A stretch of 64,000 nt of DNA from Yuukianura sp. NJ FZ-2021 (lineage: Eukaryota). Of the stretch, positions 18,649-52,800 are shown piece by piece. The stretch spans positions 4,588,001 to 4,652,000 of the forward strand of contig CM102286.1 of NCBI GenBank assembly GCA_046563655.1, given 5' to 3'. Under the pieces are notes generated by a model. That model did no database searches. It saw nothing but the letters and a program-made list of their open reading frames with translations, and was not told the DNA's origin. Position numbers and translations under genes: made by a program. Each line of letters opens with the position of its first letter. The first letter of the stretch is position 1.

Positions 18649-18780
18649 TCAAAAATTTAAAGTTCATTTTACTATTTTTTGAACCAAAATTACGAAACAA
18701 ACTCCAGATTTTTTCAGTATTATGCATAATGAATCTGTATAATTTTGTGAAAGAAGTTTCAAAGAAGAAGAGTTCCGTCC

Positions 18781-19070
18781 ATGAAACATGAAGAGGAAGT
18801 GGGACTGTTGATGGCAGATATCGCTAAGGACTTTCCTCGCTTGCAGTACATTCTAAGGTCACTTCAATTTTCAAAACTTAAGTTTTCAGCTAAGTTGACA
18901 TGTTCGTGATATTTATTTGTAAATTTTACTATTTCAGAGAGAATTTTAACATCGTCCTGTACGTATTCGGATCCAAAGAACCAATTCTAAAAAGTTTCAA
19001 GTCCTTTCTCAACGATGAGTTTATGATTGTAGACATCAACAGACATTTTCCAAAGTTAAAACCTAAGAAT
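18781..19070 (+). pseudogene. ORC2-like gene fragment (two exons, intron retained), copy 1
   Basis: 18781-18857 and 18938-19070 splice in frame to MKHEEEVGLLMADIAKDFPRLQYILRENFNIVLYVFGSKEPILKSFKSFLNDEFMIVDINRHFPKLKPKN. This resembles the ORC2 motif FNIVLYGxGSK...VINGFFP (recalled, not searched). Confidence 0.7.
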
Positions 19071-19143
19071 GTAAGTTTCTAAAATCACACTTCTAATACC
19101 AACCGGAAGTGAATGTATCAACTGTGCTTGATTGGAAATTTAG

Positions 19144-20575
19144 GTTCTGCTGAGTTTCTGGGAACCGGCAATGTGACATTGGACACCAGAATCGCTATAA
19201 TTGGGAGCGGAATTGCCGGCTTATCGACTGGACTTGTCCTGCACAACGCTGGATTTACTCAAGTAAGGATTTACGAACGGGACGATTGTTTTGACCGGAG
19301 ACGACAAGGGTATGGACTCACAATGCTACAAGGAAATACTGCCCTCAGAAGACTCGGAGTTTATGACAAGGTCAACCAGATTGACACGCCCTCCACATCT
19401 CACTACATCTTCGACTGTCATGGCAACATTGTCGGATTCTTCGGAACCAAATTCTGGCCATCACCAACCTCTGACAAGAAGGCCAAGTACAACCTCCATG
19501 TCAGCAGACAGAATCTACGCAAAATACTCTATGAACAACTGACACTAAAGGCACAAGGAATCGTTCAGTGGAACAAGATGTTGGATTCCATTCGTCAACT
19601 ATTTCCAGTTCCAGAAGAGCCTAATAACGGTGAGGATTCGTGGGAACTTTCCTTTTCGGATGGACATTTTACTAAGGTGCAGTTGGTAATTGGTTGTGAT
19701 GGGATTAACAGTTTCGTCCGTCGTCAAGCCTTTCCGGAAGATGACAATCCGCTCAAATATTTGGGAATCCTACTTGTTCTTGGCAATTCAAACATAATCA
19801 ATTCAGTAAAATCACTATAATAGAAGTAATATAAAATAAAAGTACAAGTGTGTTTCTTTTTAGGTATCACTAGGACTGATCACTACCTAAGTCAAGAACG
19901 AGTGTTTCAAACTGTGGATGGAAACACAAGACTGTTTGCAATGCCATTCTACGGAGATGAAAGCAGTCCGCATGAAAATATGATGTAGCAACTGTCATTC
20001 CCAGTGGAGGAACAAGAAGCGAAACAATTAGCTGCCAACTTGGATCAACTAAAAAGAAGAGTTTTAGAAATGTGTGGAAACTGGCACGATCCGATTCCAT
20101 TCCTCATCCAGTCAACTAATTTGTCACTGCTCATGGGTACCCCTGCCTACGACAGAGACCCTCAACCGCCATGTCAAACTTCGAAGTCATTGGTGTTGCT
20201 TGGAGATGCTGCTCATCCAATGTGTCCCTTCAAAGGTCAAGGAGCAAATCAAGCCTTACTGGACGGAGTCTACTTTACAGATTGTTTAAGTCGTGGAGTG
20301 AGCATAGATTCCGCTATTCGTAGCTTTGAAACTGAAATGTGGAACAGAGTTCGTCGAAAAGTGTTGGATTCCAGAAAAAGAGCAACAACTTTCCATCACC
20401 CGGGCGTCCTCGGAGGTGACTTTTTACTTTACCGGGGAATTGGACAAGAATTTCTCCAAAAGTTAAAAGAAAAAGGAGTCAACAGCGCAGTGGAGAAGCA
20501 ATCGATGACCTAATTATTTCAGAACTCAAAGGCCTCAATCTCAACGGTTACGGCAACTCAACTGCTCAAAGATGA
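19144..20575 (+). pseudogene. Group A FAD-dependent monooxygenase, disrupted copy 1
   Basis: Motifs IAIIGSGIAG (GxGxxG), GCDGINS (DG) and LLGDAAHPMCPFKGQGANQALLDG (GD). Lesions: GC donor at 19783 (GT in copy 2), in-frame TAG at 19986-19988, and a 1-nt deletion near 20486 relative to copy 2. AATAAA at 20628. Confidence 0.85.
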
Positions 20576-21240: not shown

Positions 21241-23065
21241 GGAAGAGTGAAAGTGTTGTAGTTTTGTCTTTTGTGTGAGATAGGAGGAATTAAGCGTAAT
21301 TAAGATAATCACTCACTCAGGGTGACAAGGACCAGAAATTCCTGCTCAATTGGACGCACTCAAGCGAAGGCTTCTGTTTTAGCACAAACCAAATTCATCA
21401 CGCGCCTCTCAACAAAACCCATTCAACGCAACGTGAGAAAGTCAGATATGGTGATAGGAAAAGAAAAGCGGAAATCTGAAAATTTGCTTTTCCTTTAAGA
21501 GCTTTGGCAGTAAGTCCTGTTTTAAAAAAAATCTCGCACCAAACAATTTTTTCTACCTTTTTTCTACTTTTTTTCTAATGTCAAGTCAAGTCTCGTTAAC
21601 TCTAATAATAACACTTCTGCTGCGCATTCAAGCAAGAGACACAGGGACTAAGTTTTTTACCACATCCCCGAACCAATGCGGATTGAGACTTTGAAACGAT
21701 CTGTGCCTGGACACATTCGTCAAGAAGTGATTCCGTAGGTTTCGGTTGTGGGATTTAGTATGTGTTCCTAAGTGATGGTGCACAGAAGGTTTAGGAAAAA
21801 ATTTAGAACTATTATTTAGAAAAGAGTTGTTTTCACTTTTTGCGTTTTAAGAAATTTCGGCTACGTTAAGTAAATTTTTTAAGTTGAGATTCGAGTTGTG
21901 AAAAACGAAATTCGGAATTAGTCTACACGAAGATACATACGACAGAGGACTAGTCAATGACTACGCTCGAGATTCCGGCCCCAGTTCACTCGAACTGGCA
22001 CACTCCGGACTTACCGAGAGAGATTCACACCCCTCCCTGCCCTGTGTCACCTGAACAGCTACTTGCAAGCCTCGATCCGTCCTCGCGCCCAATCTACTAC
22101 AATGCCGTATGTTCCAGCGTATAGAAAAAAACCGAAAGTCACGTTAAACGTCAAGTCAAGTCTCGTTAACTCTAATAATAACACTTCTGCTGCGCATTCA
22201 AGCAAGAGACACAGGGACTAAGTTTTTTACCACATCCCCGAACCAATGCGGATTGAGACTTTGAAACGATCTGTGCCTGGACACATTCGTCAAGAAGTGA
22301 TTCCGTAGGTTTCGGTTGTGGGATTTAGTATGTGTTCCTAAGTGATGGTGCACAGAAGGTTTAGGAAAAAATTTAGAACTATTATTTAGAAAAGAGTTGT
22401 TTTCACTTTTTGCGTTTTAAGAAATTTCGGCTACGTTAAGTAAATTTTTTAAGTTGAGATTCGAGTTGTGAAAAACGAAATTCGGAATTAGTCTACACGA
22501 AGATACATACGACAGAGGACTAGTCAATGACTACGCTCGAGATTCCGGCCCCAGTTCACTCGAACTGGCACACTCCGGACTTACCGAGAGAGATTCACAC
22601 CCCTCCCTGCCCTGTGTCACCTGAACAGCTACTTGCAAGCCTCGATCCGTCCTCGCGCCCAATCTACTACAATGCCGTATGTTCCAGCGTATAGAAAAAA
22701 CCGAAAGTCACGTTAAACGTCAAGTCAAGTCTCGTTAACTCTAATAATAACACTTCTGCTGCGCATTCAAGCAAGAGACACAGGGACTAAGTTTTTTACC
22801 ACATCCCCGAACCAATGCGGATTGAGACTTTGAAACGATCTGTGCCTGGACACATTCGTCAAGAAGTGATTCCGTAGGTTTCGGTTGTGGGATTTAGTAT
22901 GTGTTCCTAAGTGATGGTGCAGAGAAGGTTGAGTCAAAAATTTAAAGTTCATTTTACTATTTTTTGAACCAAAATTACGAAACAAACTCCAGATTTTTTC
23001 AGTATTATGCATAATGAATCTGTATAATTTTGTGAAAGAAGTTTCAAAGAAGAAGAGTTCCGTCC

Positions 23066-23355
23066 ATGAAACATGAAGAGGAAGTGGGACTGTTGATGGC
23101 AGATATCGCTAAGGACTTTCCTCGCTTGCAGTACATTCTAAGGTCACTTCAATTTTCAAAACTTAAGTTTTCAGCTAAGTTGACATGTTCGTGATATTTA
23201 TTTGTAAATTTTACTATTTCAGAGAGAATTTTAACATCGTCCTGTACGTATTCGGATCCAAAGAACCAATTCTAAAAAGTTTCAAGTCCTTTCTCAACGA
23301 TGAGTTTATGATTGTAGACATCAACAGACATTTTCCAAAGTTAAAACCTAAGAAT
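23066..23355 (+). pseudogene. ORC2-like gene fragment, copy 2
   Basis: Matches 18781-19070 (the overlapping ORF translations are identical). Confidence 0.7.
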
Positions 23356-23428
23356 GTAAGTTTCTAAAATCACACTTCTAATACCAACCGGAAGTGAATG
23401 TATCAACTGTGCTTGATTGGAAATTTAG

Positions 23429-24781
23429 GTTCTGCTGAGTTTCTGGGAACCGGCAATGTGACATTGGACACCAGAATCGCTATAATTGGGAGCGGAATTG
23501 CCGGCTTATCGACTGGACTTGTCCTGCACAACGCTGGATTTACTCAAGTAAGGATTTACGAACGGGACGATTGTTTTGACCGGAGACGACAAGGGTATGG
23601 ACTCACAATGCTACAAGGAAATACTGCCCTCAGAAGACTCGGAGTTTATGACAAGGTCAACCAGATTGACACGCCCTCCACATCTCACTACATCTTCGAC
23701 TGTCATGGCAACATTGTCGGATTCTTCGGAACCAAATTCTGGCCATCACCAACCTCTGACAAGAAGGCCAAGTACAACCTCCATGTCAGCAGACAGAATC
23801 TACGCAAAATACTCTATGAACAACTGACACTAAAGGCACAAGGAATCGTTCAGTGGAACAAGATGTTGGATTCCATTCGTCAACTATTTCCAGTTCCAGA
23901 AGAGCCTAATAACGGTGAGGATTCGTGGGAACTTTCCTTTTCGGATGGACATTTTACTAAGGTGCAGTTGGTAATTGGTTGTAATGGGATTAACAGTTTC
24001 CTCCGTCGTCAAGCCTTTCCGGAAGATGACAATCCGCTCAAATATTTGGGAATCCTACTTGTTCTTGGTAATTCAAACATAATCAATTCAGTAAAATCAC
24101 TATAATAGTAGTAATATAAAATAAAAGTACAAGTGTGTTTCTTTTTTAGGTATCACTAGGACCTAAGTCAAGAACGAGTGTTTCAAACTGTGGATGGAAA
24201 CACAAGACTGTTTGCAATGCCATTCTACGGAGATGAAAGCAGTCCGCATGAAAATATGATGTAGCAACTGTCATTCATAGTGGAGGAACAAGAAGCGAAA
24301 CAATTAGCTGCCAACTTGGATCAACTTAAAAAGAAAAGTTTTAGAAATGTGTGGAAACTGACACGATCCGATTCCATCCCTCATCCAGTCAACTAATTTG
24401 TCACTGCTCATGGGTATCCCTGCCTACGACAGAGACCCTCAACCGCCATGTCAAACTTCGAAGTCATTGGTGTTGCTTGGAGATGCTGCTCATCCAATGT
24501 GTCCCTTCAAAGGTCAAGGAGCAAATCAAGCCTTACTGGACGGAGTCTACTTTACAGATTGTTTAAGTCGTGGAGTGAGCATAGATTCCGCTATTCGTAG
24601 CTTTGAAACTGAAATGTGGAACAGAGTTCGTCGAAAAGTGTTGGATTCCAGAGAAAGAGCAACAACTTTCCATCACCCGGGCATCCTCGTAGGTGACTTT
24701 TTCCTTTACCGGGGAATTGGACAAGAATTCCTCCAAAAGTTAAAAGAAAAAGGAGTCAACAGCAGCAGTGGAGAAGCAATC
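23429..24781 (+). pseudogene. Group A FAD-dependent monooxygenase, disrupted and 3'-truncated copy 2
   Basis: DG motif D->N (23983), 10-bp deletion near 24160, shared TAG at 24262, +1 insertion near 24326, TGG->TGA at 24359. Homology to copy 1 ends abruptly at 24781. Confidence 0.9.
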
Positions 24782-24793
24782 GTCGTCGGACTG

Positions 24794-25121
24794 CAGACGT
24801 CGGGTTTTGGCACATTCCTGGCAGATATCCACGTCAGTCGGGGAACTTTGTAGTTTGTCCACTGCGAGTACATCGGTCGTCCTTCCTTGTCCAATGAGAG
24901 ACTCGTCAAGCAGAAACTGACTTCGCAAAAAGTTGAAGTCAGAGATTGCGATAGGAAAGGAACAGCGAAAAGTAAAAAGAAATTGGCAAAACTTACAGAC
25001 GTCGGGTTTTGGCACATTCCTGGCAGATATCCACGTCAGTCGGGGAACGTTGTAGTTTGTCCACTGCGAGTACATCGGTCGTCCTTCCTTGTCCAATGAG
25101 AGACTCGTCAAGCAGAAACTG
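24794..25121 (-). repeat. 126-bp direct repeat (24794-24919 and 24996-25121) that looks like a duplicated minus-strand exon
   Basis: One mismatch seen between copies. Both begin with a CAG acceptor on the minus strand. The 25121-24996 copy ends in a GTAAG donor, the other has GC at that position. Confidence 0.85.
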
Positions 25122-32863: not shown

Positions 32864-34015
32864 TCAGCGCTTCTTGTGATGAAAGGCAGCGTTAGCATGG
32901 GACTTCATGTGCTGCCGCAAATGTCCACGGAGACGGAATGACATTTGACATACCGGGCACTTGTCGGTGTGAACTAATTCGTGACTCTTGCGCTCACTCG
33001 TTGTTACAAATCTGAAACCAAAAATTACTTTTTCTGTATTTTTGAAATTTCAAATTTTGAAAATTTCAACGCTTACCGCTGTTCGCAAAAGTGACATTGA
33101 TGCGCACGAACTTTGGTATGAAGATACATAGTGTGAACTCGGAGCGAGTTCTTTGCTGCGAAACTTTTTTGACAAAAATTGCAAGTGTACGGCTTCAGCC
33201 CCTGGAAAGTTTTACAAAAGTGTTAATTACTGATCTAAGAAATTTTGTTAGGAAATTTTTTAAAAGTTAATTAGTTAATTTAACTGTGTGAGTGTTAAGA
33301 TGTTCCCGAAGATGATGTTTTGTAGGAGCTTCGTAATTGCAGACTTCGCAGCGTCTTGGCCCCATGTGATTCCGCATGTGGTCAATGATGTCGCTCATTT
33401 CTTCTCCGCATGTACGACATTTTTCTCGCACACCGACGTTACTAAGAATTGAAGAACAAATATTTATGATTTTTAATTAATTTGTGCCAGTAAGATAACG
33501 AGAGAAGTACAATTAAATCTACTTCAAATATCCCACTTGAATTCTGTCATGGACGTCGTCGTAACAGGAGACGGGTATTCTCCAAGAAGTGGCTTCTGCT
33601 CTGCTGCCATGTCCATGTCTTGAAATGTCGTTGGAAAAAATGTCGCCATTTGCGACATCGTTTGATGTTCAGCTGCTGTGGTCACCGTTTCCAACAACCC
33701 CGTTTTGCCATTGTTTCCGTGGCGTTCGTTTCCACCGCTGCGATCAGGAAAATTTAAAATTTGTGATTTTTAAAGTCCAAATTTTCCACAAAACTTTTCA
33801 TTAAATTTTGAATTTTCAAATTCCAGTAGTAAGCGCGCAATTGTAGCAAAAGCTTCGATTTAGTCAAAATGTTAAAAAAAATTGTCGAATTTTTGTGCTT
33901 TTGTTGTGTGAGCTTACCCCGAAAATGCCCGACTTTCTTGATTTTGATCTTGTTCGTTCCACGAGTTGTTAGGTTCCGTGAAGTGCACGGTATGTGAATA
34001 AGGATACAAAAACAT
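32864..34015 (-). CDS. Small C2H2 zinc-finger protein (about 5 fingers, 5 coding exons; finger exons absent from ORF track)
   Basis: Spliced exons give RCEVCNYEAPTKHHLREHLNTHT|GLKPYTCNFCQKSFAAKNSLRVHTMYLH...HQCHFCEQR|FVTTSERKSHELVHTDKCPVCQMSFRLRGHLRQHMKSH. Probable ATG at 34015. Confidence 0.85.
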
Positions 34016-36076
34016 ATCTGCACTTAATTGCAAAGTCAATGTACAAAAATTATGAAATTTCGCTATTGATTTTGTAAGTTTGAATTGGATTTTGACAACA
34101 CGAGAGATGCAGTAGTTCCATGCACGTAGGACAGGATACGTATAAAATCCTCCAGAAAACTAAGTGCCTCATACCTAAGTAATAAACAGACCCAGCAAAA
34201 ATATTAGCAAATGGAAAACAACAACGCACCCAAAGAAGAGAGGCGAAAACACGAGACTTTTCCAATGACGATGATATGTTTACCAAAAAAAAAGCAACCA
34301 ATGGAATTAAATAGACACTTACCTACCTCTCCGTTCCCTGGTTATTACGCCTAGTAAAACATAGTCATAGTCCTAAACTTTACTCCCGAACAAACCTCTT
34401 CTGATAAATTTGCAAACGTCCACGACGGAATTTGTTTTTGCACTCGCAAAAAATTGTTTACCAAAAGATATTCTGCTGCTGGGTTCCAATTTTCCGCCTT
34501 GGAATTATTTGGAACCTTTCCTCTACTCTGCTGCCTCCCTCAAATACACTATAACTTAAGTGTCAAATGGATTCTGCTGGATATCCGAATATCTTTCTCA
34601 TCCCATTGGAATTTGGCATTTTCAAGCATTTTTCCAAAGGAATTGGCTATTGAGAACTTTGGCCGATAGCATTTAAGTAAAAACTGGTTATACCCTAACT
34701 ACAGTCACCCTATACGTTGCCCAAATGACATCCAGTATCTAAATAGGACTAATATTTTTGAAGCAGATTTTACTCAATTTATAGTTCAAAATGGATTTTT
34801 ATAATAAAATATGGTATTTGCTAACATTTATTATTAACATGTTTTTTGATACTGATGAACTGATGTTCACGCGAACAGGTTAGGCACAGAGAAAGTCGAA
34901 CAGCTAAATCAGGTGAAAGTAAATTCACTTCGAGTGTTCATAGATGAGCGTTTTTACTGCCTTAATCAATGTAATTTAGTTTTGTTTAGTTTTTTTTATA
35001 GGTAGTAGTGTATGAATTAATTGGCAATTAAGTAGGCCAGAGAAGATTAGTTTAATTGAATTAACAGCCAAGCCACGTAAGGTTGAAGGTTATAACGAAA
35101 TATCTAAAAAGTTCAGCAATAATCTCAACTTTGAGTTTAAAAAAGTTCGTCGAAGTTTAGGAATAATTTTAGTTTTCAATGTCGTGTTTATGTTTAGAAA
35201 TAAATTTAGAATGTTCAAAAATAAAGTTTTGTTGACTGTCGTTGCACAAGTATGAAGCAATAACTTTATTTTTGCAATTGAATATTGAAATCCAATTTCA
35301 GATACAAGCAGTATTAATTTTTAAGATGCTGTAGTGAATCTGTAGTAGACTGGGAAATTTTTGAATTGTTTTGCCATTTTTTTTAAAACCACTTGAAAAT
35401 TTGTTTTTCATTATAAATTGTTATTGTAACTTGGTATAATAAAAGTAGGAAACATTTCTTTTCTTGTGGCTTTTGGTAATTTGGCTATTTAATCTATTTA
35501 CCGCTAGGCTGGGAAAAATGACTCATGATTTTCTGTAATGTCTGCCAAGGTCAATATATTTGACCACGTTTTATCTTAACTAGTTTTCATACGTTGCTGT
35601 ATATTTGAAATACATACTGTAGCGCATGAAATTTTATCGCAATTTTTCCTATGGAATACGGGTTACTATGTTTGTTTTTCGAAAGTGAGTTTAAAAAAGC
35701 TTTCGATTACAGTAGTAAACTATTTAAAAATCGCAAGACATATTATATGCCTAAGCGCTTCGGTATAGTTTCTGAATAAAAATGGCATTAGTGAAAAGTT
35801 TTCAGATTTTCTTCATGTGAACTAATTACGAAGAGCAATAAACGGAAAAAAACGCAATATTTTTACTGAAAATAACATTTTCAACTTTAATTACACTTTA
35901 TCATATTTCCGTGAAGAAATCTTAAAAGTGCACTACGAAGTGAACATGAACATAGACGTAATAGAAAATTATGGTAATAAGACGGAACTCTGCTTACACG
36001 CGACAAAACTTTGAACTTATTCAGGCGTTTGTTAAATGTTTTAGAAATGAGGTTTTCGTAAAATTCCTTCGAATCG

Positions 36077-36504
36077 TTAACCTACACGTCCAGGTCTTCC
36101 AGCAGGAGAAGCATACGTCCAGGGAGCCATCACCTTCTGACCTCTCTTGGAATGTCGCTTCCTGGAGTGTCGTTTACCGGACTTCTTATGACTGTGACGA
36201 CGCACTCTGCAACATTTTCAAAATGTTACAAATTTTGTGTGTTGGTTCAAAATTTATTGAATTGCATTACCTCGGCAGAATTGGATCAGCTAGAAGAATC
36301 GCTTCTGCGTTGGCATTCGCAACCTCGTTTGATGAAGCCAACATTTCAGAAGATGCTTCAGCGTTCCGCATGTATATCAATACCACCACCAAAACGCTTG
36401 CAAATACCTGAAAAATTATGGTATAGTTATTAAATTTTAAAAAAAATGGATAGAATTAAAATCATTGAAGCTAAAGGTTAGCTTACCAAGCGATAGAAAT
36501 TCAT
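36077..36504 (-). CDS. 94-aa secreted prepropeptide with cationic His/Lys/Arg-rich C-terminus (candidate antimicrobial or bioactive peptide)
   Basis: Exons 36504-36487, 36407-36271 and 36206-36077, all GT-AG and in frame: MNFYRLVFASVLVVVLIYMRNAEA SSEMLASSNEVANANAEAILLADPILP RVRR HSHKKSGKRHSRKRHSKRGQKVMAPWTYASPAGRPGRVG*. TATAAA on the minus strand at 36607-36602. Confidence 0.8.
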
Positions 36505-37682
36505 CTTAGACTTTCTTAGAAGGAAACTTTTTTGCTCAATCCAAAAAAACTTGCAGAAGAGAAGAAACGTTGGAATAAGAAATGACTAACCGATGACAAT
36601 ATTTATACTAAAATTAGCAAATACCGCCCTCACTGCCCCAAAAAGTTTTCCAAATTAATGAGGTTGACCTAGTTACTTTCCGAATTTTTTTTTCGAAGGT
36701 AAGTAAAGTTCAAGATTATCGGAGCACAAAGTGGTGCAATGGGATTTTTTTTGGACATGACGCAGATATGACACATCTTCAGATGACAACTTACAAAATG
36801 TCAATGTCATCAATACAATTTTTTTCAGAACGTCCCACTTTCGTAGTCAATTAACGAATTTCAATGACCTCGTTCTCGCTATCGAAAACATTAGCAACAT
36901 GGCTTACTATGTCATAGAGTACTGAAAACAAACAGAAATTTAATAATTTTGGTCGAGATTTTCTAAAGAATTTGAAAAACCAATACAATGCGAATTAATT
37001 TTCAACGTATCTAATAAATTCTCTAAAAATAAAAATTGGACAAGCGGACAAAATGGTACATAAGTTTGAAATACTACGAATAAGCAGGGGCGACATCATA
37101 ATGGTGTGAGTCACGTTTAACTTTTAAAGCTGCATTTTTTAATTTAAAAATATTGCGATTTCGCAATCATGCTATGATTGTTTGTTTCTAAGAAATTTGA
37201 CTATGCTTAGCAAAAATGTCCAATCAAGTGTAGATGTTAGGTTGTTTAGTTTAGTGATTCACAAAATTGCAATGTCCTAAACCACAAGTCTAAAAATACT
37301 AATGAAAATTTTCATTTGAAAGGCAGCATTGCTACTGGCTGGAGCTGACGCCGGCCTTGGCTAAGCGATTCAGGTCGAACTCAGAAATATCTTTTTGAGT
37401 TGTGCTTTTCTTTTTTAAACAGTTTGAACAACCTTTCCTAAAAAAGTTCGAATGAAAGAGTGAACCAAGTACTGCTGGCACCTTGTCCTTTTGTCTTTTG
37501 TAAACCTTGAACTGAAAATCCCTTCATCCTATTGTCATTTTTTTCAAAAATTCTTCGTCAATTGCCCTTCAACTTCTTTTTCCACTTGAACTTGGTATTA
37601 TCCTTTTTCTAAAATTTCAAAAAAGTGCTTTCCGGAGTCCTTTCAGCAAGTAGTTTACTCTGAACAAGCGAAAGAAACACAA

Positions 37683-39830
37683 ATGGGCTCAAATCTGCTT
37701 ACACTTTTTTGTGTGTTAGTGGTACACTTGGGAATTGTTGGGCCAGGTCAAGGTCAAGAAGAAAACTTTTACTACGGAAGTTGCAAGTCTCGGTTTGAAG
37801 CAAATCCCAGCGACTGCTCGTCATATTTTGAATGTAACTTTGGAGCACGTCTTCTTCGGAAATGTCCATCGTCACTTCACTGGAATCCAGCCATCACGGC
37901 TTGTGATTGGCCATGGAATGCTGGTTGCGAAGAAGTATCTGAGGAAGAGGTAGCTCCAGACGCGGAAACACCGGAACAGAACGGCTTAGAATTCGAACCT
38001 GCGCCGGAAATCGACTCAGGAGAACAGACGCTGCGTAAGTTTAAATTATTCCAAGATGTACATTAAAAACAAAATTTTGGAAATCTTTTGAAAAATCTGA
38101 GACGTGTTTTCAAAGCTAACTTTTTTTGGGATATTAAAAAGTTACTGAACCATGTACTGAGGGATCCTTCGCGCCGAATCAAGAAGACTGCAGTACATTT
38201 TACATTTGCAACCACGGAAAGCTTACACTGCAAAGCTGTGGGGCTGGCTTACAATGGAATAGTCAAGCCAATAGATGCGATTGGCCCAGTGCAGCAAATT
38301 GTGGTGGATCAAGCCCAGGTCAAGGTCAAAGTTCATCCCCAGGAGCACCATCTCGTCCGCCCATTGAAACCCCAGTAGCTCCTGAACCTACAACTACCAG
38401 CACAACAGAAGCTTCGGTTGTCGTTGCTCCTGTAGCGCCGAAACCGCAGCCGACGCCATGGACTTCAGGTAAAAACTTCAAAAACTCAAAAATAGAAGTT
38501 ACTATTTTGGATTTTCTAAAAAATTTTCTTTCTAAAAATAGGATTGAAATTGATTTGTTACTTTACTGACTGGGCGTGGTATCGCCCTCTGCCTTCGGGC
38601 AAGTACATGCCATCCGACATTGACCCCTCCCTCTGCACCCACATTGTCTATGCCTTCGGTCTCCTCAATGGAAACGATTTCGTGATACAACCGGCCGATA
38701 CTTGGGCGGACTTTGACAACGGTTTCTACCAAAAAGTGACGAGTCTCAAATCCGGTGGGACTAAAGTCACCTTGGCTCTGGGTGGGTGGAACGACTCTGG
38801 CGGCAGCAAATATTCTACTTTGGTCAACGATCCCAAAAATAGAGCCACTTTTATCAAATCCGTCGTTGCATATCTGAAGAAGTACAATTTTGATGGCCTT
38901 GACTTGGATTGGGAGTAAGTATCAAAATTTTAAATTTAAAAAATTCAAAATTTGGCGCCTTTTTTCATACAATGTCGTATCCACAGGTATCCATCGTGCT
39001 GGCAGGGCAACTGTAAGCAAGGACTGGGTGACAAGGCAGGATTTGCAGCGTTGGTCAAAGAACTTCGAGCAGCGCTTCCAGCCGGATCGCTTCTATCGGC
39101 TGCAGTTTCGGCCAGCAAACTTATCATTGATGCCGGTAATTTCAAATCATCAGCTTCAAAACTTGACGCTAATTTCAAGATCTAGTATTTAGTACTAGTA
39201 TTTCCGTATTTCTTCAAGTACTTTCTAGTATTCAAGTATTTTTGTTGCAATGTAGCTTATGATGTGCCAACACTATCCAAGTACTTGGACTGGATTGGAG
39301 TAATGGACTATGATTTCCATGGAAACTGGGACGGAGTTACTGGACACATCGCTCCACTTTACTACACTCCAGGCGATGCCGTAGCATTCTACAACATCAA
39401 CTCCTCAATTCACCATTGGATTGAAAGTGGCGCTGCTCCAGAGAAGCTGATTCTTGGTATACCGCTTTACGGCCAGTCATTTACCCTTGCGTCAACTGCC
39501 AACCACGGTCTTGGTGCGCCGTCGCAAGGACCAGGCCAAGCTGGAACATACACAAGACAGGGCGGTGTTCTTGCTTACTACGAAATCTGCAGCCAAACTT
39601 GGACGGTTGTCCAAGATCCTCAAGGTCGAATGGGCCCATACGGTTACAATGGGAACCAGTGGGTGTCGTATGACGACGTTGCCATGGTTACAAAAAAGGC
39701 CAACTACGCCAAGCAACATGGACTTGGAGGTGGCATGATTTGGGCGCTAGACATGGACGACTTTACAAACAAGTGCGGCCTTGGGAAGTATCCACTCCTT
39801 AGTGCAATTGCAAAAACACTTAAATCTTAG
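37683..39830 (+). CDS. Secreted GH18 chitinase with two N-terminal CBM14 (peritrophin-A) domains
   Basis: Signal peptide; CBM14 #1 (CKSRFEANPSDCSSYFEC...CDWPWNAGC); CBM14 #2 (CTEGSFAPNQEDCSTFYIC...CDWPSAANC); Pro/Thr linker; GH18 with intact DGLDLDWE|YP, VMDYDFHG and MIWALDMDDF. Confidence 0.95.
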
Positions 39831-40269: not shown

Positions 40270-43200
40270 TCAGTGGCAGTTTGAGCATTTGGGGTGGCAC
40301 TTCTTGCCATTGTATCCACAGCGACACCCAGCAGAATCATCCCCTCTTCCTTTTGGTCCCCAACGTGGGCCTGAGTGGAAAAAGTTCAAATTATTAAACT
40401 TAACGTCTATAATGAGTTCCTTTAGGTAAATCCATTGCAGAATCAAATTACCTTTAGTGGCCCAACAAATATGAGTCTGACAAACCACACAAGTCATTCC
40501 ATCGCACCCACCATTTTTGATAATCACGACCTTGCAAGTGGGACACTTCATTGCTTCTCCTTTGCTGATCATACGCTAGAAACGAAAAAAAAATAACGGA
40601 ATTATACAGCAGTAGCGGTGAGTATGCAGTAGAAGCCAGAGGTATTTGCGCTTGACAAGTTCTTACATTGAGTTCTTCCCTTGAAGCCAGTTCAAACTCC
40701 CCTTCCTTGAGACGACTTTGATACTCAGCGCATGTCAAAGCGTCGTGAATTGCCTTACAAGGAACGCAGTTCTTCTTACTACAAATATAGCAGCGGAATG
40801 TCCTCACTTGATTATCTTCAATCTCAGCCCAACCAGTACAATTGACACTTTGGCAATGGAATGCATTCGACATCCCCATCTCAGCAGCAGCCAAAGACTT
40901 CTTCAGCAACTTGTCATAGATGTCCTCAGTAGCAAGCTAAAGACACAGCAAAGGTAAAGCTAATGTTGAAAAATCCGAACGTAAACGTTTTCAAAATTGC
41001 GTCTTACCGCTCGCACTTCCTTGTCCGTAATGTGCATTTGGCATGAGTAGCTTCCAGATTGATAAGGACACTTGACACGAATCTCTTCCGAATGTTCAAT
41101 AGAACCCACGAGACAGTCTCTAAAACACAAAAAGAAACATTCATATTAGAACTTGAAGTAAAAACTTTCATTTTCGTAAGCTACCCACCGACAGAAACGG
41201 TGAAAGCATTCCTGTAGAATTACGCCTTGGCCTTCGTCGACATCCACGATACAAATAGGACATTCGAAGACGTGGTCAGTCTTGATAATGTCAGCAAAAA
41301 CATTCATGTCGGGCTTTTTATCCTCGCAATTTCCCTAAAATTAAAATTTGAACACTTGCAGTTAGGATAAATTGATTAACTAACCAAGATTACCCAATTC
41401 GACTTACACTTTCTTTGTCGCCGTTAAATTTGGAAACCAACTGAGCCCAGCTTGCTTCCCACTCCAGTCGGACTTTCATCTCTTCTTCAGTCTCTGCTGC
41501 TGGCAACTTCATGGCAATAATTTCTTCTCCATCAGACTTATCCTCTTCAGACGTACTATTAGCCAAATCAATTACTCCTCCCTCCATTTCCACTCCTACT
41601 CGTCGTTTCTTCTTGTTGGGACAAGTTCCTTCGTGTGTGGTTTTGCAGTCAAGGCAGTTAAGTTTTGAGCAAACTGGGCAGTAGAACAGGCGTAGCTGAC
41701 CTTCAATTACACATAATCCAGAGCATCCAGGAACAAAACACGGAGTCAAATCACTGTCAGCTGCTAATGCACTGGTCAAGGACCGTTGTAAGTACTTCTG
41801 AAAAGCGTCTTCATCTACAAGCTAAGAAATGAGAAAAAAGTTAGAGACTACGCTAAATCTTGTATAATGTCACAAGTTGGTTTCCAGACCTTCTTAATTT
41901 CTGGATCCGACAACACACCGTTACATTTTCCTTCATCTCTGAGTGGACAAGAGATCTGTGGGTCCGAGCTGTGCTTCACATAATTTTCTAAACACTCCCT
42001 GTCAAGTAGAACCAAAATTGACGTAAATTGCTTAACTTGTTTAAATACATTGTTAACTTACAAGCAAAACACATGAAGACACGATTCAATTCCAATTGTT
42101 TCAGTGGTTGGTTTTGAAACAGCACAGAACGAGCAGTCCACAAACACGAGTGGGATTGGAGAATCAGCAAGGTCGAAGACATTGGTCATGGACTTCTTTG
42201 TTTGTCGTTTCGGTTTTGCCTAGAAAATGGAAGCTTATTATGCGACTTCCTCAAATTGCAACAATTTCTTTTACAAATGGTTTTTCAGCGAGAAAAAAGT
42301 GCTGTAATTTGAAGAAGTCGTCTTATGTAATAAACATTCTTTAAGATGTGAGATTCAAAATCAAAGCAGTCATACCTGCTTTTGTTTTGGACTGCCAATC
42401 GGTGGTGTAATCTGAATAGGAGTTTGATTCATATCTGCCTTTCTTTTTCTAGAAGTGTTAACAGTGTTTGGCTGCACGTTGGGCACAGGAATCGGAATGG
42501 GTTGCGTTTGAGCTGGACGTCCACGTCGCTTCGGTGTAGGAGGGTTTACAGCAGTCGGGTCGGAGTCAGCCGGTTCTGTAGCTTTTCTTGCTGCTGCATT
42601 TTTTGTTTTGGATCTTGTTTGTGGAGGTTCAATTGTTCCAGCTTTCTTGGCATTGATTGTTACTTGATTGGCTAAATGATACATACGCAGTTGATGATTC
42701 AATTGCTCCAGCTGAAAAGGCGTAAATGACTTCTTACGTTTCTTCGTCTTAGCAAGTTCTGGCGGGAACGGAACCCAGTTCCCAATGTCAGCAAGGGATG
42801 GTGGAGTCGTTGTAATTTGAGGCAAAAGTGGAACGGCCCCACTGGTGCCAGGCTGGATTGAAAACGGATCAAACAATTTGTTTGCAGTTGCTGACATTTC
42901 AGAGTCGTTTGCGGTTGCGGTGGCACTTCCGTTTCCTGCCGTCTTTCCAGAACTGCTTGCTGTTTCTATAGGTGGAATTGCAGTAGTTGCAAACTGAAAA
43001 CCTGAATCCAGTTGAAGATCATGAGTTCCAAAATCAGAGTACTTTACGGTACGTTCCGTTTTAACGGTAGTGATGGTCGGAGAGGTGATATGAAATGCAT
43101 TAGTGTTATTAGGATCATGTCCAAGTCCAGTCGTCGTACTAGTAGCTGTTTTAGTTGTAACCGTAGTAACCCTAGAAATGCCCAATGTTGGATTTTGCTC

Positions 43201-44688: not shown

Positions 44689-45788
44689 ATGTTGTACTTG
44701 ATTGGCCTTGGACTCGGCGATCCTTCTGACGTGACTGTGAAGGGATTAGAAATTATCAAAAAATGCGACCGTGTTTATTTGGAAATGTACACCTCTATTT
44801 TAGGTGCTGGAAAGCAAGAATTGGTAAGGTGACTGCGTGATGAGTAGTTACTGGAAATTTTCACTTTAATGATTGCAGGAGAGCTTCTACGGACGAGGAA
44901 TAGAAATTGCAGATAGGGATATGGTGGAACAAGGCGCTGATACAATGTTAAATGATGCCAAGACTAAAGATATTGCTTTGCTTGTCGTCGGAGACCCGTT
45001 CGGTGCAACGACTCACACAGACATTGTGCTGAGGGCCAAGGAAATGAATATTCCAATTCAAGTTATTCACAACGCTTCCATTTTAAATGCTGTTGGCGCA
45101 TGTGGACTTCAGGTGAGAACGTACATTATCAGAACGCACAAGTGGTTAAATTGGACACGGTAACTGTTAATGGTTTGTTTGGGATCATCAGCTTTACTCA
45201 TTTGGCGAAACGGTTTCAATTCCTTTCTGGACCGACACATGGAAGCCGGATAGTTTCTTCAAGAAAATATGCGAAAATAAGAAAAGAGGACTCCACACGC
45301 TTTGCCTTTTAGGTAAAAATAAGATTACACAAATAAATTCAAATAAAATTTTAACTTTCATTTTGATTTATCACCTCTTCGCAGATATTAAAGTAAAAGA
45401 ACCAAATCTCGACAGCATGGTCAAAGGAAAATTGGTATACGATCCTCCGAGATTCATGACAGTTTCGCAAGCGGCTTCTCAGTTAGTGGAAATCATGAAT
45501 AACACCGCGTTGGATGAAGATGTGCCAAGTAAGAATATGCAATAACCCTGAAAATCTTGTACAGTTTAATTCACTTGAAGTATATTTTTTGAAGGATGCT
45601 TACAAGAATCGGATCTTTGCATTGGAGTGGCTCGCATTGGAAATTCAACACAGCAATTTGTTGCTTGTACGTTCCGGGAAATGCTGTCGGTGGATTTAGG
45701 TCCCCCACTACACTCGATTGTGATTCCAGGTGAACTGCATCCGCTCGAACTTGAGTTTATATCATCTTTCAAACTTAAATTAAATTGA
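44689..45788 (+). CDS. DPH5: Diphthine methyl ester synthase, 5 exons
   Basis: [104 protein letters not shown]. Confidence 0.97.
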
Positions 45789-46263
45789 ACATCTACGTGT
45801 TTATAAAAATTTTATAATGGAATTTTTATTTCATGATTTCCGAGAATATAAATACGTCTTCTATCACCTAACGACAACTTAAAGTCCAAGTTTGATTAAT
45901 TTTATTGATTTCTTCAAACTCGCTTTTAAACTTTGTTAACTTTCCTTTGCAAAAAATTCAAAATTGGTATTTGAAGTGGGCTTTTAGCAGTGTTAGCGTT
46001 AGCAGCTAAAGTGTTTAGAATAGAGACAAAGGCACGAACTAGGAAGTATTGTGATGATCAATTAGTTTTTTTTTCTTAAATGTAAAGTAAGTTTTAAATT
46101 ATGAAACCTTAAGATTGACATCGCCGTTTCGTTTCGAAAGCCTAATCGCTTCGAATCATATACCGTGCTAACCTTATTCTTAAACTCAAGTTAAAAATAA
46201 CGGTGGTTCCATTTTTTTGCAGAGAGACGGTGCGAGATTGACATTTGATTAGCACCCATGGGG

Positions 46264-49200
46264 TCAGAGGTAACTGTTTCCTGGATGATGGTATCCCCAC
46301 TGATCATACGTTCCACTAAAGTACTGATGGTGGTGATGATGATGAGGGTATGCAGCATAGTTAGTGCTTTGATACTCCGATCCAAATACGTTTGCCGATC
46401 CTGGTGGGGTGTGGCCACTACCACTGCTGCTGCTGCCCTCACTCTGCTCCGATTTGGCCATTGGCATTTCAGGGACGATGCAGTGGCTATGATGTTGGGG
46501 ATCGGAGTATGTTGACATCAAAAGAGGACTGTTCTGAACATAGTGGTTGAGGTCATTGGACAGATGACCTTTGGGTTGTTGGTATTCCCAGAGGGGGTTG
46601 AAGGTCATGGAGGACTCATGACCCATGCCACCACTATTCGTGGATTCTAGACGCCTTCGTTTGCTAGAATTGGCTTTATCTGTGGGGGTCGTCGGTGGGG
46701 TTGGTGGGATCGGAGGACGAGATTTCGTGTCCGATTTTTCCGAGGGAAGCGGGGAAGCATCACTGCAAAAATAAAAAATTATAAATTTTAAAAAAAAACT
46801 GCTCATTTAGTTTTTTTAGATTAGACAAAACTGAAACTTTTTGCAAATCATTGCACACCATGCTGCTAAATTGAAATGTTAATTTACAACATTTTTTTTT
46901 TTTTGAAAATCTTAGGTACTGGGCCCTTCAGCTCCAAAGTACTCAAGAGTCATGGGCCCTTCAGTCAGAATTATTTCAACAATATCTTTGGCACTTCCAA
47001 AAGCAACGAAGTTCATGATTTGTTGACCTTGTAAATGAGAATTGACCAAAGGTTGGAAAAGCGCATGCGTAAGGCTGTGAAGGGCCCTAGGATCATGATA
47101 TTCGATCCATAACATTTTAAGTAAATCAATTAACCTGAAGCTGGCAGAAGATGACGAAGGGCTCTTGTCATGTTGACGATGATGACGGTGAAGATGGTGG
47201 TGATGGCTGGATGCTGGAGGGTCCGTACAAGTACTTGTGCTGGTACTGTTCCCTTGTTTCCGTCGTCTCGGTTGATACTTGTAGTCTGGGTGCATTCGTT
47301 TATGTTCAGATCTTAATCGCTCTGCTTCCAGAACAAAAGGGCGTTTTTCATCTTCACTTAGGAGCCTAAAGTGGCAAAATCAAAGTGAGAAATTTAATTC
47401 AAGTGTACCACAAACAAAAAGGCGTTGTACTGATCTAAAAAGCCGTGATGATGCTTTGAAATGGATCTTTACAAGAATACTTCAGATCATTCCTGTTCAC
47501 TCCAATTGTCAATATTGTTTTTTAAATGAACATTCGTCAAGCTTTCTTTTCGTGAAATATCAACAAAATGGTCATCCACAGATTTTAACAAAGGGGGTTG
47601 TGGGGGGTAAGGTTTCAAAACTTTTCAGAATTTTTTTCGATTCACAAAAAATGAAGCATTTTTCCTTCTTTTTCACGTTTCAAGTGGCACATCGATTTAA
47701 AAATTCGATGGTATAAAATAGTTTTTTTTTGTCAAAATTTAGGTTTTGTCATCATTTTTCTTTTTCCTAATGTTTCAAAACATTTTCAGTCGTTTTCAGA
47801 CACCAAAAAATTGTTTCGCACAAATCCTCCCGTATTGATTTTGTTTTTCGATTTTACCCTTTTTGAACTTTTTGGAAAATTGATGGAAATAGAAAAAAAT
47901 ATACTTTGCTCAAACCGCTTTTAAACTTATTATTTTCATATCATACCTATAATATGAAGCAAAATTTTGGAAGTGTTGAAATTTTGCGACACTCAAATTT
48001 AAAAAAAGTAATTTCCGTAAATCCAACCGCATGTAAGCTAGCTCCTGTTTGACAACAATGCCTTACGTTTAACGTTGAATTACCTGATTATTTTTATTTT
48101 GAGAAGTTGTTGTTGTTTTTTACTCTGATGCCCGGTAGTTAACTAATTGTAGTTGTCATAAACAAAGCTAATCTATCTCTCACTTGTCTCTGCTATCTTT
48201 TTTCTCGGTTAAAGATGCTCCCGGTTACATCGTTTCCCGGATCTCTGCTTAGCGTCACTCAACAAGTTAAAGTCTAAATGTCTACTTTTATTACCCGCTA
48301 CTGCCGTAAACCTTCCTCACCAAAATATCATTCTTGTTCCCATTTAGATCTTTCTAACCTCTCCCATAAGAGCGTTTAGTAAATTTATTTCTTCAAAAAA
48401 AGTTCATTTTCCAGAATCCAGATTTTGAACAGTGACATTATGAAGATAGCGGGGGTTTAAGAAAACAAATTCAAAATTTGTTCGTCTGGTTTGAGCCAAA
48501 AAGCCTTGGAATGGAAAATGTACAAATCTGTAGCCTCGGAATGGTGTTCATAATTATTATTCGAGGATTTTATGAACGTCGAATCGTTACTCTTAGGTGA
48601 TTGATGACCTTTTGACATTTTGTTAGTTCAACATTGGTGTTTTAGGATATTTAGGACTCAATGTTTAAAAAAACCAAAATGTTTTGTGCGTTTCTGTTAC
48701 TAAATTTCAACAAAAATTTAGGTGAAAATTTTGAATTTTGAGTACCATTGATTAAAATGGAAATGTTTATAAACACAGATAACTTGGTATTACTCTAGGC
48801 TATTAAAACCTGGAGGGAAAGTTGAAACGATTTGTTTTAAAAAATGGGAGTGACCCCCGTTGGTTCTGTACTAAAATCAAAAGTCACGTTTGTGGACATC
48901 TCCGTATGCTGAAGTTAAGTGTGGGGTCAGCGTTTTTGACCTGGGTTCAAACCGTGTTCTGTTCTTTTTGTCTTTTACATCATTTTAAGCATGATTCTGT
49001 AAATTTTTCAGAAAATGACCAATGACTAACCTCCAAAGTTTCCCAAGACTCTTGCTCAATTCAGCATTGTGTAGCTGGGGGTATTGCTCCGCTAAGCGTC
49101 GTCGAGCTGCCTTGGCCCAAACCATAAAAGCATTCATGGGCCGCTTCACGTGGTCATCCTTCACACTGGGTGTCGTGGACCTAATCGTAAAAATATTGCG

Positions 49201-49892
49201 CTTGTAAATTAAGTCATTTCGCTGAATCCAACTCATTCGTTTGTGAAAGACATAGTTTACATTAGACTCTGGAACCGTTTATAACGCAATACGCAGTTTG
49301 AGAATCAGATTCCAAATTTCGTCATAACTTTTGCGCATGGTTATAAAAGTTCGGAAATTGTCAAAATACGTTGCTGTAATCTTAATAACAGTGTGATCTG
49401 ATTCAAAATGTTTAACTTTTTTCAAAAACAAAATTCACGAATTGTGAATGAAAACAATGAAGCATTGGCTTGTTCAAACAATGTACATTTTAAGCAAAGG
49501 TCAACGACCAACACAAAGTATTGAATTCAAAATAAAAAAAAAAAATCCAGATTTTTTTTCTTCTAGAAGGGAAAAAACGTAGTGAATTCTTATGAAAAGA
49601 GCACGATTCGTCAGAAACGTGAAAATGAAAATACGCAGCAAGAAAAATGCCTGCTTCGGAACCAGCGTGCTATTGCAGTTTTTTGAAGAAACTACTGACC
49701 CTGCCATCTAAAAAGTTGACCTGCGTAATAAATTAGTAGCGTCTCGTGCCAACATCCCTCTGTTGCGTTTTTTAAAATCTTTGAAAAAACTTGAACTTAC
49801 TTTTTAGTATTGGAGACCAATGACCAGTCGTACCCTTGGAGCACTTTGGCTGCTGCTCTATCAATTTCTGCCACTTGGGCTTCAGTAGCCAT
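46264..49892 (-). CDS. SoxE-group HMG-box transcription factor (Sox8/9/10, Sox100B-like), 4 exons
   Basis: Dimerisation motif [17 protein letters not shown], then HMG box [77 protein letters not shown], then PPTPPTTP. Confidence 0.93.
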
Positions 49893-52800
49893 TGTTCCTG
49901 ACCTGACCTGACCCCTTTGAGGCACAACAATGAAATGAATGTTATCTGGCAAGATACTCACTTCCTTATTCCAGGTTCCGAAATTTTGAAACTTTCCGAA
50001 CCAAAAATGAATGAAGCCACTTTTAGACTCCAAATTCAAACGCTGAACTTTCACCGGGGGATGAAAAGGGCTCTTTGTACAAAGTGCAGAACCTTTTCCG
50101 AATTTAGTTTGCGGCTTATGAGTGATGAGTCACCACAAGTGAGAACGAAGTCATTGTTTTGTCTTAATCCTTTCCGAAATAATTATAAATTTAGAAGTGG
50201 TCAAAGGTCTAAACTTCAGTTTTAAGATTTTGAACAAGAGTATTGTAACAAGCACAACGTGCAACTATAGGGTCAGATGACCTCTGCCCAACAACGTTTA
50301 CTTTAGTGCGTTCAACTAAACAAGTTAGTCACTCCAGAAGTTATATCTTGGATGATAGGCAAAGAAAACTTGAATTGCGTGTTGTTTAATTGGAGTAGTA
50401 GATTTACACTAATTTTTTTGAAGTAGTAGCAGGGTATACTATGCCGTTGGCTTGATTCGTGAATGAATGGCTTGGAAATGAGTGAGTGAGGGGTGAGTTA
50501 CTGAAACTGATCTTTGAAAAATTCAAAAGAATCTTCAACGGCATCTTCTACGTTGGACCACAGATCAGTTCAAGAAAATTTTGGGCTGACTTTTCCGTTC
50601 AGAGCTCCGCCCTAGGGGAAGTCCTTCGGAAGTCTATTGCAATAAACCACAAATTGCATATTCAATAAAATTTTGAGATTCGAAAACTTTTGTTTTTTGA
50701 AAATCGTATAATTTTGAATTTAAGGTGAAGAAACGCAGAAAAAATACGACATTTAAAAAAATTGTGCACACATCGTTCACACAACAAAAGTTTTGTTGTC
50801 GAAAGAATGTTCAGAATTTGTAGTGGTTGAGATGAAAATTTTTTCAGAATTTTTTATTTGGTAACTCAGAATTTGTTGCAAGTTCATTGTACAACTTCGG
50901 CACAATTAGAAACAATGAATTCATGTTTTTGATTTTGGTCATTTGGTGCACAAGCAGCGTGTGGTCACTTTTATGAACTCGTCCCGCCAGATTTTGAAAC
51001 AAAGGTCATCATCAAATGGCATCTTGAATCGTGAAAACAAACATTCGAAGAGAAAGTTTATGTTTCACAAGTTTTGTTACGTAAGTGTTAGTTCTGTTTA
51101 CGCAAGTTTTTCAAGCGTGATTTCATAATTTGCAATTTGTGGCCTGAAAAATAGTTGATCTAATTATAAAACAGCGGGTAACTTTAAGGCCAGGAGCCCT
51201 TAAGGATGAAGCAAATTTAAAACCCAAGGGACGAAAATGTTATGTTCACAATAAACAAATGTAGTGTTTGGAGCGATGGAGGCTGAATCTAGGCTTCAAG
51301 GGCCTCCACGAAGGGACAGTGATGTGTGGGCATCTCGGATTTCCGAAAAAGGCGGGGGTCCCTTTTGACAATGGGAGTGTGACCCGATGACTTGTTCATC
51401 CTAGCATGAATTCGGATTCAAGAGTTCCCTGTTACATCGCACCCAATGTACATCTTTTAGTATATTGCATTTCCCTGGATCATAATTAGACCATTTTCAA
51501 GTCTTTTCAACTTATCGACTTCAAAAATCTGTTCAAACCGTTAATAAACTTGTCTGAAAAAACTGCCGACTTGGAAAGTTTGAAATTAGGTCACTGGATT
51601 CCAGATTCAGCACGCAGTAATAGGCTTGGCACAAGATTTACAGTTGGTGGTGGCGATTAATTTTAAGTTTTGCCGTTGTCATCAAAAATTTAAAGTTTTA
51701 GTTTTTTAATCAAAATAACACTGACCTAAAACACACCAAAACTGTACACTTCTTACTTTTAATCGCTGAATTCTGCATGATAATGTTTTGAATCCAAAAC
51801 AACTTATAATTTCCACTTTCTTTAAAAAGTTTGTGTCTCATGATTTCTTTCCTCGAAATCTTGAATTCAGTGGAAAAAACAAAAATAGCATTTTGTATTT
51901 TTTGTTGAATTTCATTCTGTAAAGTGCATTCTCAATTTTTTTTTTTGCTTTGACCTTACGATTTGAATTGTTTCATTGAGAAGATGTCAACTCAGCGCGT
52001 ATGCAACGGAACCTACATAAAACGCATCACGCTTTTTTGAAAGCTATCGTAACGTCGTAGTGTTTTGCTCCTCCGTGGCTTTATAAACTGACAAGATTTT
52101 GACGAAGGACAAGAAAATGCTGTTGATAAGAAGCCCTGTGTTTATCTTTGGCTTTGCCCATCCTCGACCTTTGACCTTCGTATCATGTGAGGTTCCAAGT
52201 GGGTTCAATGCCGGAGTGGAAGGATTCTATTGTAGGAACCTTGGAGGGAGTAACTAAAAGGCTCTGATTTTAGTTTTGAATTATTTAAGGGCCTCTACAT
52301 GGTGTACTTAAGGGTACTTGGCACTTGAGGAGCTTCGATTTGACATAGGTTTGGACTATAGAGTTTTTTTTCAGATGCAAAAGTTTGCTTCAGATTTTGG
52401 TTTCAGACTTTTGATGTTATCAAGGAAGATTTCCGAGTAGTATATAAAAGTATATTAAAAAGTTTAGGAATTGGAAGTCATTGGTTTTTTGAGGAAGGCA
52501 CAAGATCAGAATCACTTTTCACGGAAAATTTAACTCTGTAGAATTTGTCGCAATTAAGGATGAGGGCATGAGCTTCCAAAGTATGACTAGAAGTTTGAAC
52601 TGTTAAAAATCTTCCAAAACCCAACGAACATGGCGGAGACCCCGAAAAGTTACCCGGGTATCTTTGACTTGTCAACATATTTCCTCTGCCGATAAATCAT
52701 TCCTTTCCAACTAAATCTTTCCTGTCTAATTGTAACAGAGATACTAATGAGTCGTTCTAGCAGTCGGCATCTTTCAAATCCTCCCGCGGCAAGCCCACCC

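Follow-up and report, generated by a model that had tools for sequence, protein, structure and literature searches.

A candidate three-exon gene for a small secreted cationic peptide precursor, head to head with a chitinase gene in the springtail Yuukianura sp. NJ FZ-2021

The window analyzed here is a 64,000-nt stretch of the Yuukianura sp. NJ FZ-2021 genome (assembly GCA_046563655.1, contig CM102286.1, positions 4,588,001 to 4,652,000), and plain coordinates refer to positions within it. On its minus strand, the segments 36504-36487, 36407-36271 and 36206-36077 join into an in-frame reading of 285 nt, which encodes 94 aa followed by a stop codon. An earlier note on this DNA had proposed that three exons with canonical splice sites are joined here into a 94-aa ORF, and we found that they do join in frame, by removal of two GT-AG introns, 79 and 64 nt long. 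The features of the locus, from the chitinase gene on one side to the zinc-finger genes on the other, are:

37683-39830, plus strand: chitinase gene, divergent, 5 exons, 591 aa (signal peptide, two CBM14 domains, linker, one GH18 domain)
36741-36750, plus strand: kappaB-like site
36721-36714, minus strand: GATA-like site in the upstream stretch
36601-36607, minus strand: putative TATA box (TATAAAT), with the initiator-like site 31 nt downstream
36572-36578, minus strand: initiator-like site, YYANWYY, with the predicted transcription start at about 36576
36487-36504, minus strand: coding part of exon 1, 6 codons, start of the predicted signal peptide, donor score 6.2
36408-36486, minus strand: intron 1, 79 nt, phase 0, GT-AG (GTAAGC...CAG), 21% GC
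36271-36407, minus strand: exon 2, with the remainder of the signal peptide (36407-36354), a 27-aa propiece (36353-36273) and two bases of an Arg codon
36207-36270, minus strand: intron 2, 64 nt, phase 2, GT-AG (GTAATG...CAG), 27% GC, interrupting the furin site
36077-36206, minus strand: exon 3, with the end of RVRR (36206-36197), the 39-aa mature peptide (36196-36080) and the stop codon TAA (36079-36077)
36143-36202, minus strand: polybasic half, with three (K/R)RHS units, three internal Lys-Arg sites, one of them as Gly-Lys-Arg
36188-36196, minus strand: His-Ser-His, an X-X-His end of ATCUN type, N-terminal only once RVRR is cleaved, predicted to bind metal
36080-36142, minus strand: C-terminal 21 residues past the last Lys-Arg, a Pro/Gly/aromatic segment ending in Gly
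35965-36411, plus strand: 148-codon open frame antisense to exons 2 and 3, spanning intron 2
35886-35891, minus strand: ATTAAA, candidate polyadenylation signal, 185 nt past the stop codon
27412-34015, minus strand: cluster of C2H2 zinc-finger genes, the nearest with 5 exons and 242 aa, from 34015

The divergent arrangement with a chitinase reported earlier is present: the two genes lie head to head, with 1,178 bp between their start codons. The chitinase has its best relatives among arthropod proteins named "chitinase 10". It is 60-62% identical to the "probable chitinase 10" P0112 of Folsomia candida and 56-63% identical to insect and crustacean proteins. P0112 shows a similar short architecture of signal peptide, linker and one GH18 domain, with one CBM14 domain vs. 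two in the protein described here, whereas the "chitinase 10" group as such is multi-domain.

The splice sites of the peptide gene are ordinary for this genome, falling between the 25th and the 61st percentile; the exon 1 donor stands at the 42nd percentile among 310 trained donors and the intron 1 acceptor at the 61st percentile of the trained set. Short introns are also typical of the genome, as 167 of 310 modeled introns measure 55-90 nt. Since intron 2 splits the first Arg codon of RVRR, the furin site is present only in the spliced message, and the unspliced frame of exon 2 terminates straight after that Arg. On the upstream side, the candidate start site fits the initiator consensus YYANWYY, and the predicted 5′ UTR of about 72 nt contains no upstream ATG. 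The ATTAAA hexamer past the stop codon is weak as a signal because such hexamers are common in AT-rich DNA. One kappaB-like and one GATA-like site were found at most 180 bp from the predicted start, at background frequency; chance expectation for the 1.18-kb intergenic stretch is about 0.15 and 0.5, respectively, so that neither is significant.

Judged by its sequence features, the locus very probably holds a real gene for a secreted precursor. GC content is 46% in exon 2 and 52% in exon 3, compared with 21% and 27% in the two introns and approximately 33% in the flanks. It drops from 54% to 32% past the stop codon, and exon 3 is coding-like as far as the stop. The predicted frame gave the best coding score among the same-strand frames of both exons, with 3.5 bits for exon 2 and 6.7 bits for exon 3 (reference values: median 6.8 for coding windows, n = 81; mean -23.2 and 99th percentile 6.4 for non-coding ones, n = 948). 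In exon 2, one antisense frame outscored the predicted one (8.0). We also applied a simple gene finder trained on 200 kb of flanking DNA and on the rest of the window, with positions 34401-37600 held out. With a score of 12.2 bits, it retrieved intron 2 and the exons on either side of it, exon 2 being opened at Met19 and exon 3 closed at the proposed stop codon. Exon 1 was left unpicked, and the three-exon model scored 6.8; the finder contains no signal-peptide model and leaves a hydrophobic run, a micro-exon or a TATA-initiator pair unscored. Simulated non-coding DNA (1 Mb) gave no calls scoring 0 or more. Reversed real DNA (528 kb) gave five calls of at least 12.2 and 12 calls of at least 6.8, and the coding score alone is thus indecisive. 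None of the 34 reversed-DNA calls scoring 0 or more combined a signal-like start with a furin motif. A repeat search of 33700-37700 returned short, chance-like pairs only.

The alternative that no expressed gene exists here, and that the locus is a chance or decaying GC-rich patch, is improbable. It would agree with the lack of any homologue in our searches, with the rate at which reversed real DNA reaches the coding score (about once per 100 kb), and with the 148-codon frame open on the opposite strand. It is opposed by the presence, in one place, of GT-AG introns of ordinary length, contrasting GC content, a promoter, a signal peptide and a furin site that spans a splice junction. In addition, the antisense model reached 6.0 bits vs. 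18.2 for the minus-strand model, about 12 bits lower, and the plus-strand frame is best read as a shadow.

The features that the gene finder leaves unscored bear on the first exon. Of 28,472 non-coding 12-codon control runs, 52 matched the in-frame hydrophobic run of the precursor; 123 of 5,812 acceptor-like control sites had an ATG micro-exon in frame at a distance usual for introns; and a TATA box paired with an initiator was found 0.042 times per kb of non-coding background. Because each of them is rare by chance, they support exon 1 and, with it, secretion of the product. A non-secreted product, either a 76-aa basic nuclear peptide started at Met19 or a fusion of exons 2 and 3 to the zinc-finger gene, is highly improbable in comparison, although the finder itself prefers the Met19 start (12.2 vs. 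6.8). In the fusion version, a donor at 36116 would open a 2.4-kb intron leading onto the downstream C2H2 zinc-finger gene, to which our exons would contribute a nuclear-localization leader. With long introns and a high gene penalty the fused model indeed scored 46.0 vs. about 44.2 for separate genes. Yet the identical setting wrongly joined spurious antisense sequence to the chitinase, and both fusions disappeared when the penalty was lowered. Moreover, the 37 nt past the 36116 donor are coding-like in frame to the stop, which was matched by 0.6% of 4,426 controls, and the zinc-finger gene has a start and donor of its own. We thus regard the fusion as unlikely.

The predicted translation starts with a signal peptide, as judged by hydropathy: its core reaches a 9-residue value of 3.3 and it ends in AEA, after which cleavage is predicted from the (-3,-1) rule. 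This agrees with the hydrophobic signal peptide ending in AEA that had been described before. The 27-aa propiece contains four acidic and six Ala residues, as its earlier description as acidic and Ala-rich implied; "acidic" is, however, an overstatement for a net charge of -4, which balances just one third of the charge of the tail. The RVRR site, the 39-aa tail devoid of acidic residues and the terminal Gly were all confirmed in the translation of the joined exons. The tail has a charge of +12 and a pI of about 12 (6 Lys, 6 Arg, 4 His, no Asp or Glu), so that calling it "His-rich", with 4 His in 39 residues, went too far. Its final Gly is a possible amide donor. No Cys is present in the whole precursor.

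The mature sequence consists of two dissimilar parts. Residues 1-19 include nine Lys/Arg and all four His but no apolar residue, while residues 20-38 include eight apolar residues, three Pro and three Lys/Arg. Three (K/R)RHS units arose in 2 of 200,000 shuffles, for a pattern that was itself defined post hoc. Over their 15 bases, the last two units show three differences, of which two are silent and one exchanges Arg and Lys, and such codon differences can be taken as slight evidence of selection at the protein level. A dibasic pair precedes each HS unit, and at one of them it forms Gly-Lys-Arg. The maximal 11-residue helical moment was 0.67 vs. a shuffle mean of 0.57, and 19.5% of 2,000 shuffles reached that value; a cecropin-type pore former is therefore unsupported. 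A single-sequence AlphaFold prediction for exon 3 was uninformative (pTM 0.14, no secondary structure assigned).

Searches for relatives were run with single exons of 42-45 aa as queries, which are short and compositionally biased, so that sensitivity was limited. A word-index search of longer proteins returned nothing for exon 3, and for exon 2 none of 138 candidates reached E ≤ 10. HMMER comparison of exon 3 with 1.84 billion protein representatives gave three matches at E ≤ 0.001, all rejected as homologues since they are tandem-repeat proteins that add up weak stretches. The best ESM Atlas scores (0.84 and 0.80) were within the chance range. There was no Pfam family for exon 2 or exon 3 at E ≤ 1, no PDB match at E ≤ 10, and no match in metagenome contigs to an exact degenerate pattern of the C-terminal motif. 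In the genome of origin (98.66 Mb, 22 contigs), protein and DNA searches retrieved the gene itself only. The exon 1 pattern had 23 matches in that genome, with hydropathy above 3 in this gene only (next best 2.69). Three motifs of the tail matched 21 other places, all of them unrelated, and the models in the 200 kb of flanking DNA and in the window included no small gene resembling it. As the earlier note recognized no family, none emerged from Pfam, PDB, the protein representatives or the genome of origin; cuticle proteins likewise gave no match in Pfam. By these searches the gene is an orphan, with no relatives detected and a single copy in its own genome. No description of the peptide was found among the papers listed in our literature searches, which covered few subscription papers.

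Two side observations come from the motif matches. A short frame with three RHS units, but with no gene model or further likeness, lies at L048 (G000:C4:12039938-12039960). Several matches form near-identical groups, namely L066-L068 (G000:C7:4777671-4792202), L005-L007, L013/L022 and L025/L026, indicating local repeats or duplicated elements.

We compared the predicted precursor with known kinds of peptides. On sequence grounds it appears likest to histatins in composition and N-terminal motif and likest to furin-processed insect immune peptides in layout, and it belongs to none of the AMP families compared. With histatin-5 and the histatins in general (HTN1/HTN3) the mature peptide shares its short length, predicted secretion, strongly cationic character and richness in His, Lys, Arg, Ser and Gly. 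It also shares the X-X-His ATCUN N-terminus, provided that the predicted cleavage takes place (PMC12155162). Differences are equally clear. There is no histatin match in Pfam (E ≤ 1), PDB (E ≤ 10) or the representatives; the HEXXH zinc motif described in PMC12155162 is missing from a mature peptide that has no Glu; four His are found in 39 residues vs. seven in histatin-5 (PMC7701195); and histatins do not share the propiece, the furin site or the Pro/Trp/Tyr C-terminal half with its possible amide. To the earlier suggestion of a histatin-like, metal-binding peptide with three (K/R)RHS units, the ATCUN end adds one concrete point; HEXXH and histatin homology are absent. Any likeness to histatins is convergent. 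The ATCUN-type, putatively copper-binding end had been overlooked before and is a testable lead.

The class features of furin-processed immune precursors are present here as a signal peptide (by hydropathy), an RXRR site and a short cationic product. Drosophila Baramicin A, Attacin C/MPAC and apidaecin-like precursors share the signal peptide, RXRR processing and possibly the release of several peptides per precursor. The layout, previously called typical of arthropod antimicrobial peptide (AMP) precursors, matches RXRR-processed Baramicin and apidaecin-like candidates (PMC8423362, PMC12958777). The last residues, RPGR-V, loosely recall the VXRPXRTV motif of Baramicin IM10-like peptides (PMC8423362), but they occur once only, lack the leading VX and the Thr, and are not arranged in tandem furin-flanked repeats; the likeness is probably due to chance. 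In contrast to the furin-processed immune precursors, ours has a single RXRR site and is not Pro-rich. Proline-rich AMPs are characterized by PRP motifs. Those of the apidaecin and drosocin type contain about 20-30% Pro (PMC12958777), vs. 3 Pro in 39 residues and no PRP here.

Cecropins, including three from Sinella curviseta, resemble the product in being Cys-free, cationic and about 38-41 aa long when mature, and in precursors that end in Gly (PMC10051947). Unlike them, the peptide has no Pfam cecropin match and no significant amphipathic helix, and the three springtail cecropins shown in that paper have neither a 27-aa propiece nor RVRR. A possible lead, a cecropin-like start of the signal peptide, was dropped as the same three cecropins begin differently (PMC10051947). 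Springtail defensin, Alo and diapausin have six conserved Cys (family motifs of Alo and defensin in PMC10051947), whereas this precursor has none. Lastly, single-copy amidated precursors of the CAPA/periviscerokinin type share the signal peptide, the dibasic sites and the Gly amide donor, and differ in that no family motif was recognized here by eye and no homologue was found.

The small secreted prepropeptide with furin site and cationic tail proposed earlier holds as a predicted structure, and function can be approached by analogy. Our leading reading, held tentatively, is that an intact, single-copy, lineage-specific gene encodes a furin-released, non-amphipathic, polycationic defense peptide that would act like histatin. 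According to established processing rules, the signal peptide would be removed after AEA, furin would cut after RVRR, and the terminal Gly would be converted to a C-terminal amide. The product would have 38 residues and a charge of about +13, would be largely unstructured, and would begin with His-Ser-His as its free N-terminus. Analogy suggests that the polybasic half may bind anionic microbial surfaces (fungal or bacterial walls, possibly also nucleic acid once taken up), with the short Trp/Tyr/Pro half as a possible anchor. The X-X-His end would bind Cu(II) only after processing, leading to oxidative damage or to copper buffering. Such action would be histatin-like, with no helical pores of the cecropin type.

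Several points argue for this defense reading. Exon structure, composition and promoter evidence back the reality of the gene, and the tail carries +12 with no acidic residue. Arthropod immune peptides that are restricted to one lineage usually take the form of short, secreted cationic orphans processed at RXRR (PMC8423362, PMC12958777), and the three collembolan cecropin precursors likewise end in a bare Gly (PMC10051947). The X-X-His N-terminus that cleavage would create is an ATCUN motif, as found in histatin-5, hepcidin and piscidin (PMC12155162, PMC7701195); that of histatin-5 binds Cu(II)/Ni(II) and is able to produce reactive oxygen (PMC12155162). Springtails inhabit microbe-rich soil, yet in a survey of five species homology found only 5-13 AMP genes of known families in each, and the survey anticipates further, non-homologous ones (PMC10051947). 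On the other hand, histatin-5 itself reportedly acted as a copper buffer and did not kill streptococci (bioRxiv 10.1101/2022.01.07.472205). The helical moment does not exceed that of shuffles, the propiece offsets only one third of the tail charge, and the kappaB and GATA sites are at background level. From composition alone, the chance of finding His in the third position is 10-21%, and convertases could destroy the basic half at the three internal Lys-Arg sites. The gene has no relatives found and is single copy, whereas many AMP families are multi-copy.

The same Lys-Arg sites are central to a neuroendocrine or paracrine explanation, which we consider unlikely. Convertases would cut RVRR and the three Lys-Arg sites, the basic half would be discarded, and the 20-residue C-terminal amide would act on a receptor, possibly together with an extra 6-residue amide from the Gly-Lys-Arg site. 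The dibasic pair before every HS, the one Gly-Lys-Arg and the terminal Gly would all suit such a precursor, but spacers so basic and so short are atypical of neuropeptide precursors. All that the end of the 20-mer has in common with CAPA periviscerokinins is Arg-Val-amide; the Phe-Pro of their end motif is missing. By eye, the 20-mer carries no familiar C-terminal motif of the neuropeptide families that PMC4770511 lists for non-pterygote hexapods. The single copy is in line with neuropeptide genes, which are usually single-copy, yet neuropeptides are also usually conserved across hexapods (PMC4770511) and no relative was found in 1.84 billion representatives.

The position next to a chitinase gene and the basic half with no apolar residue bring up another explanation, namely a polycation that is secreted for a surface or reproductive function outside immunity. 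It would bind acidic glycans, nucleic acid, cuticle or peritrophic matrix, or take part in a spermatophore, egg coat or glue, possibly being co-expressed with the divergent chitinase. We rate it as rather unlikely. Reproductive and surface proteins are often fast-evolving, which fits the orphan, single-copy status of the gene. The chitinase stands head to head at 1.18 kb, and springtail chitinases have been proposed to function in molting and in digestion of fungal walls (PMC5644144). But in a genome this compact, adjacency says little about co-regulation, and there was no Pfam match to a cuticle protein (R&R), CBM14 or other chitin-binding family. Nor did the papers listed in our literature searches show a comparable furin-processed cuticle protein or springtail spermatophore peptide. 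A chitinase neighbor is as compatible with molting as with an antifungal or gut role and does not discriminate between them.

A more far-reaching version of the defense reading would see in the gene a convergent invertebrate counterpart of histatin, with a copper-binding ATCUN end that is unmasked by furin at a site assembled by splicing. It would be the first member of a new family of antifungal metallo-peptides in springtails, separate from the five AMP families described there. The precursor would also yield the amidated 20-residue peptide, and the products might be deployed with the chitinase against dietary fungi. Taken as a whole, this version is unlikely.

The present evidence, drawn from sequence, backs the gene and not its function. 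The gene probably encodes an orphan precursor of a familiar general kind, in which the two-part mature peptide is unusual. As a candidate AMP it is a concrete one, a 38-mer that is cheap to synthesize and assay. Should it prove active, it would represent a non-amphipathic defense peptide that binds metal in a non-insect hexapod; if it served in signaling or reproduction, its gene would still be an orphan without annotation, one of those that gene finders miss because of their micro-exons.

Other genes in the window were noted in passing. The stretches 18455-20513 and 22767-24853 are a near-identical tandem duplicate about 4.3 kb apart, with upstream DNA included, and represent either a recent duplication or an assembly artifact; the duplicated gene looks like an FAD-dependent monooxygenase. 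Two IBR-domain stretches of the RBR ubiquitin-ligase type lie close together at 40270-41821 (minus strand). A gene with a tetrapyrrole-methylase domain (Pfam) at 44873-45545 (plus strand) is presumably a diphthine synthase, and the HMG-box gene at 46191-50129 (minus strand) looks like SoxE from its translation. Separately, a two-exon model at L035:8241-8944 (plus strand) predicts a Cys-rich protein that starts like a signal peptide, contains the furin motif RAKR and has a hydrophobic C-terminus.
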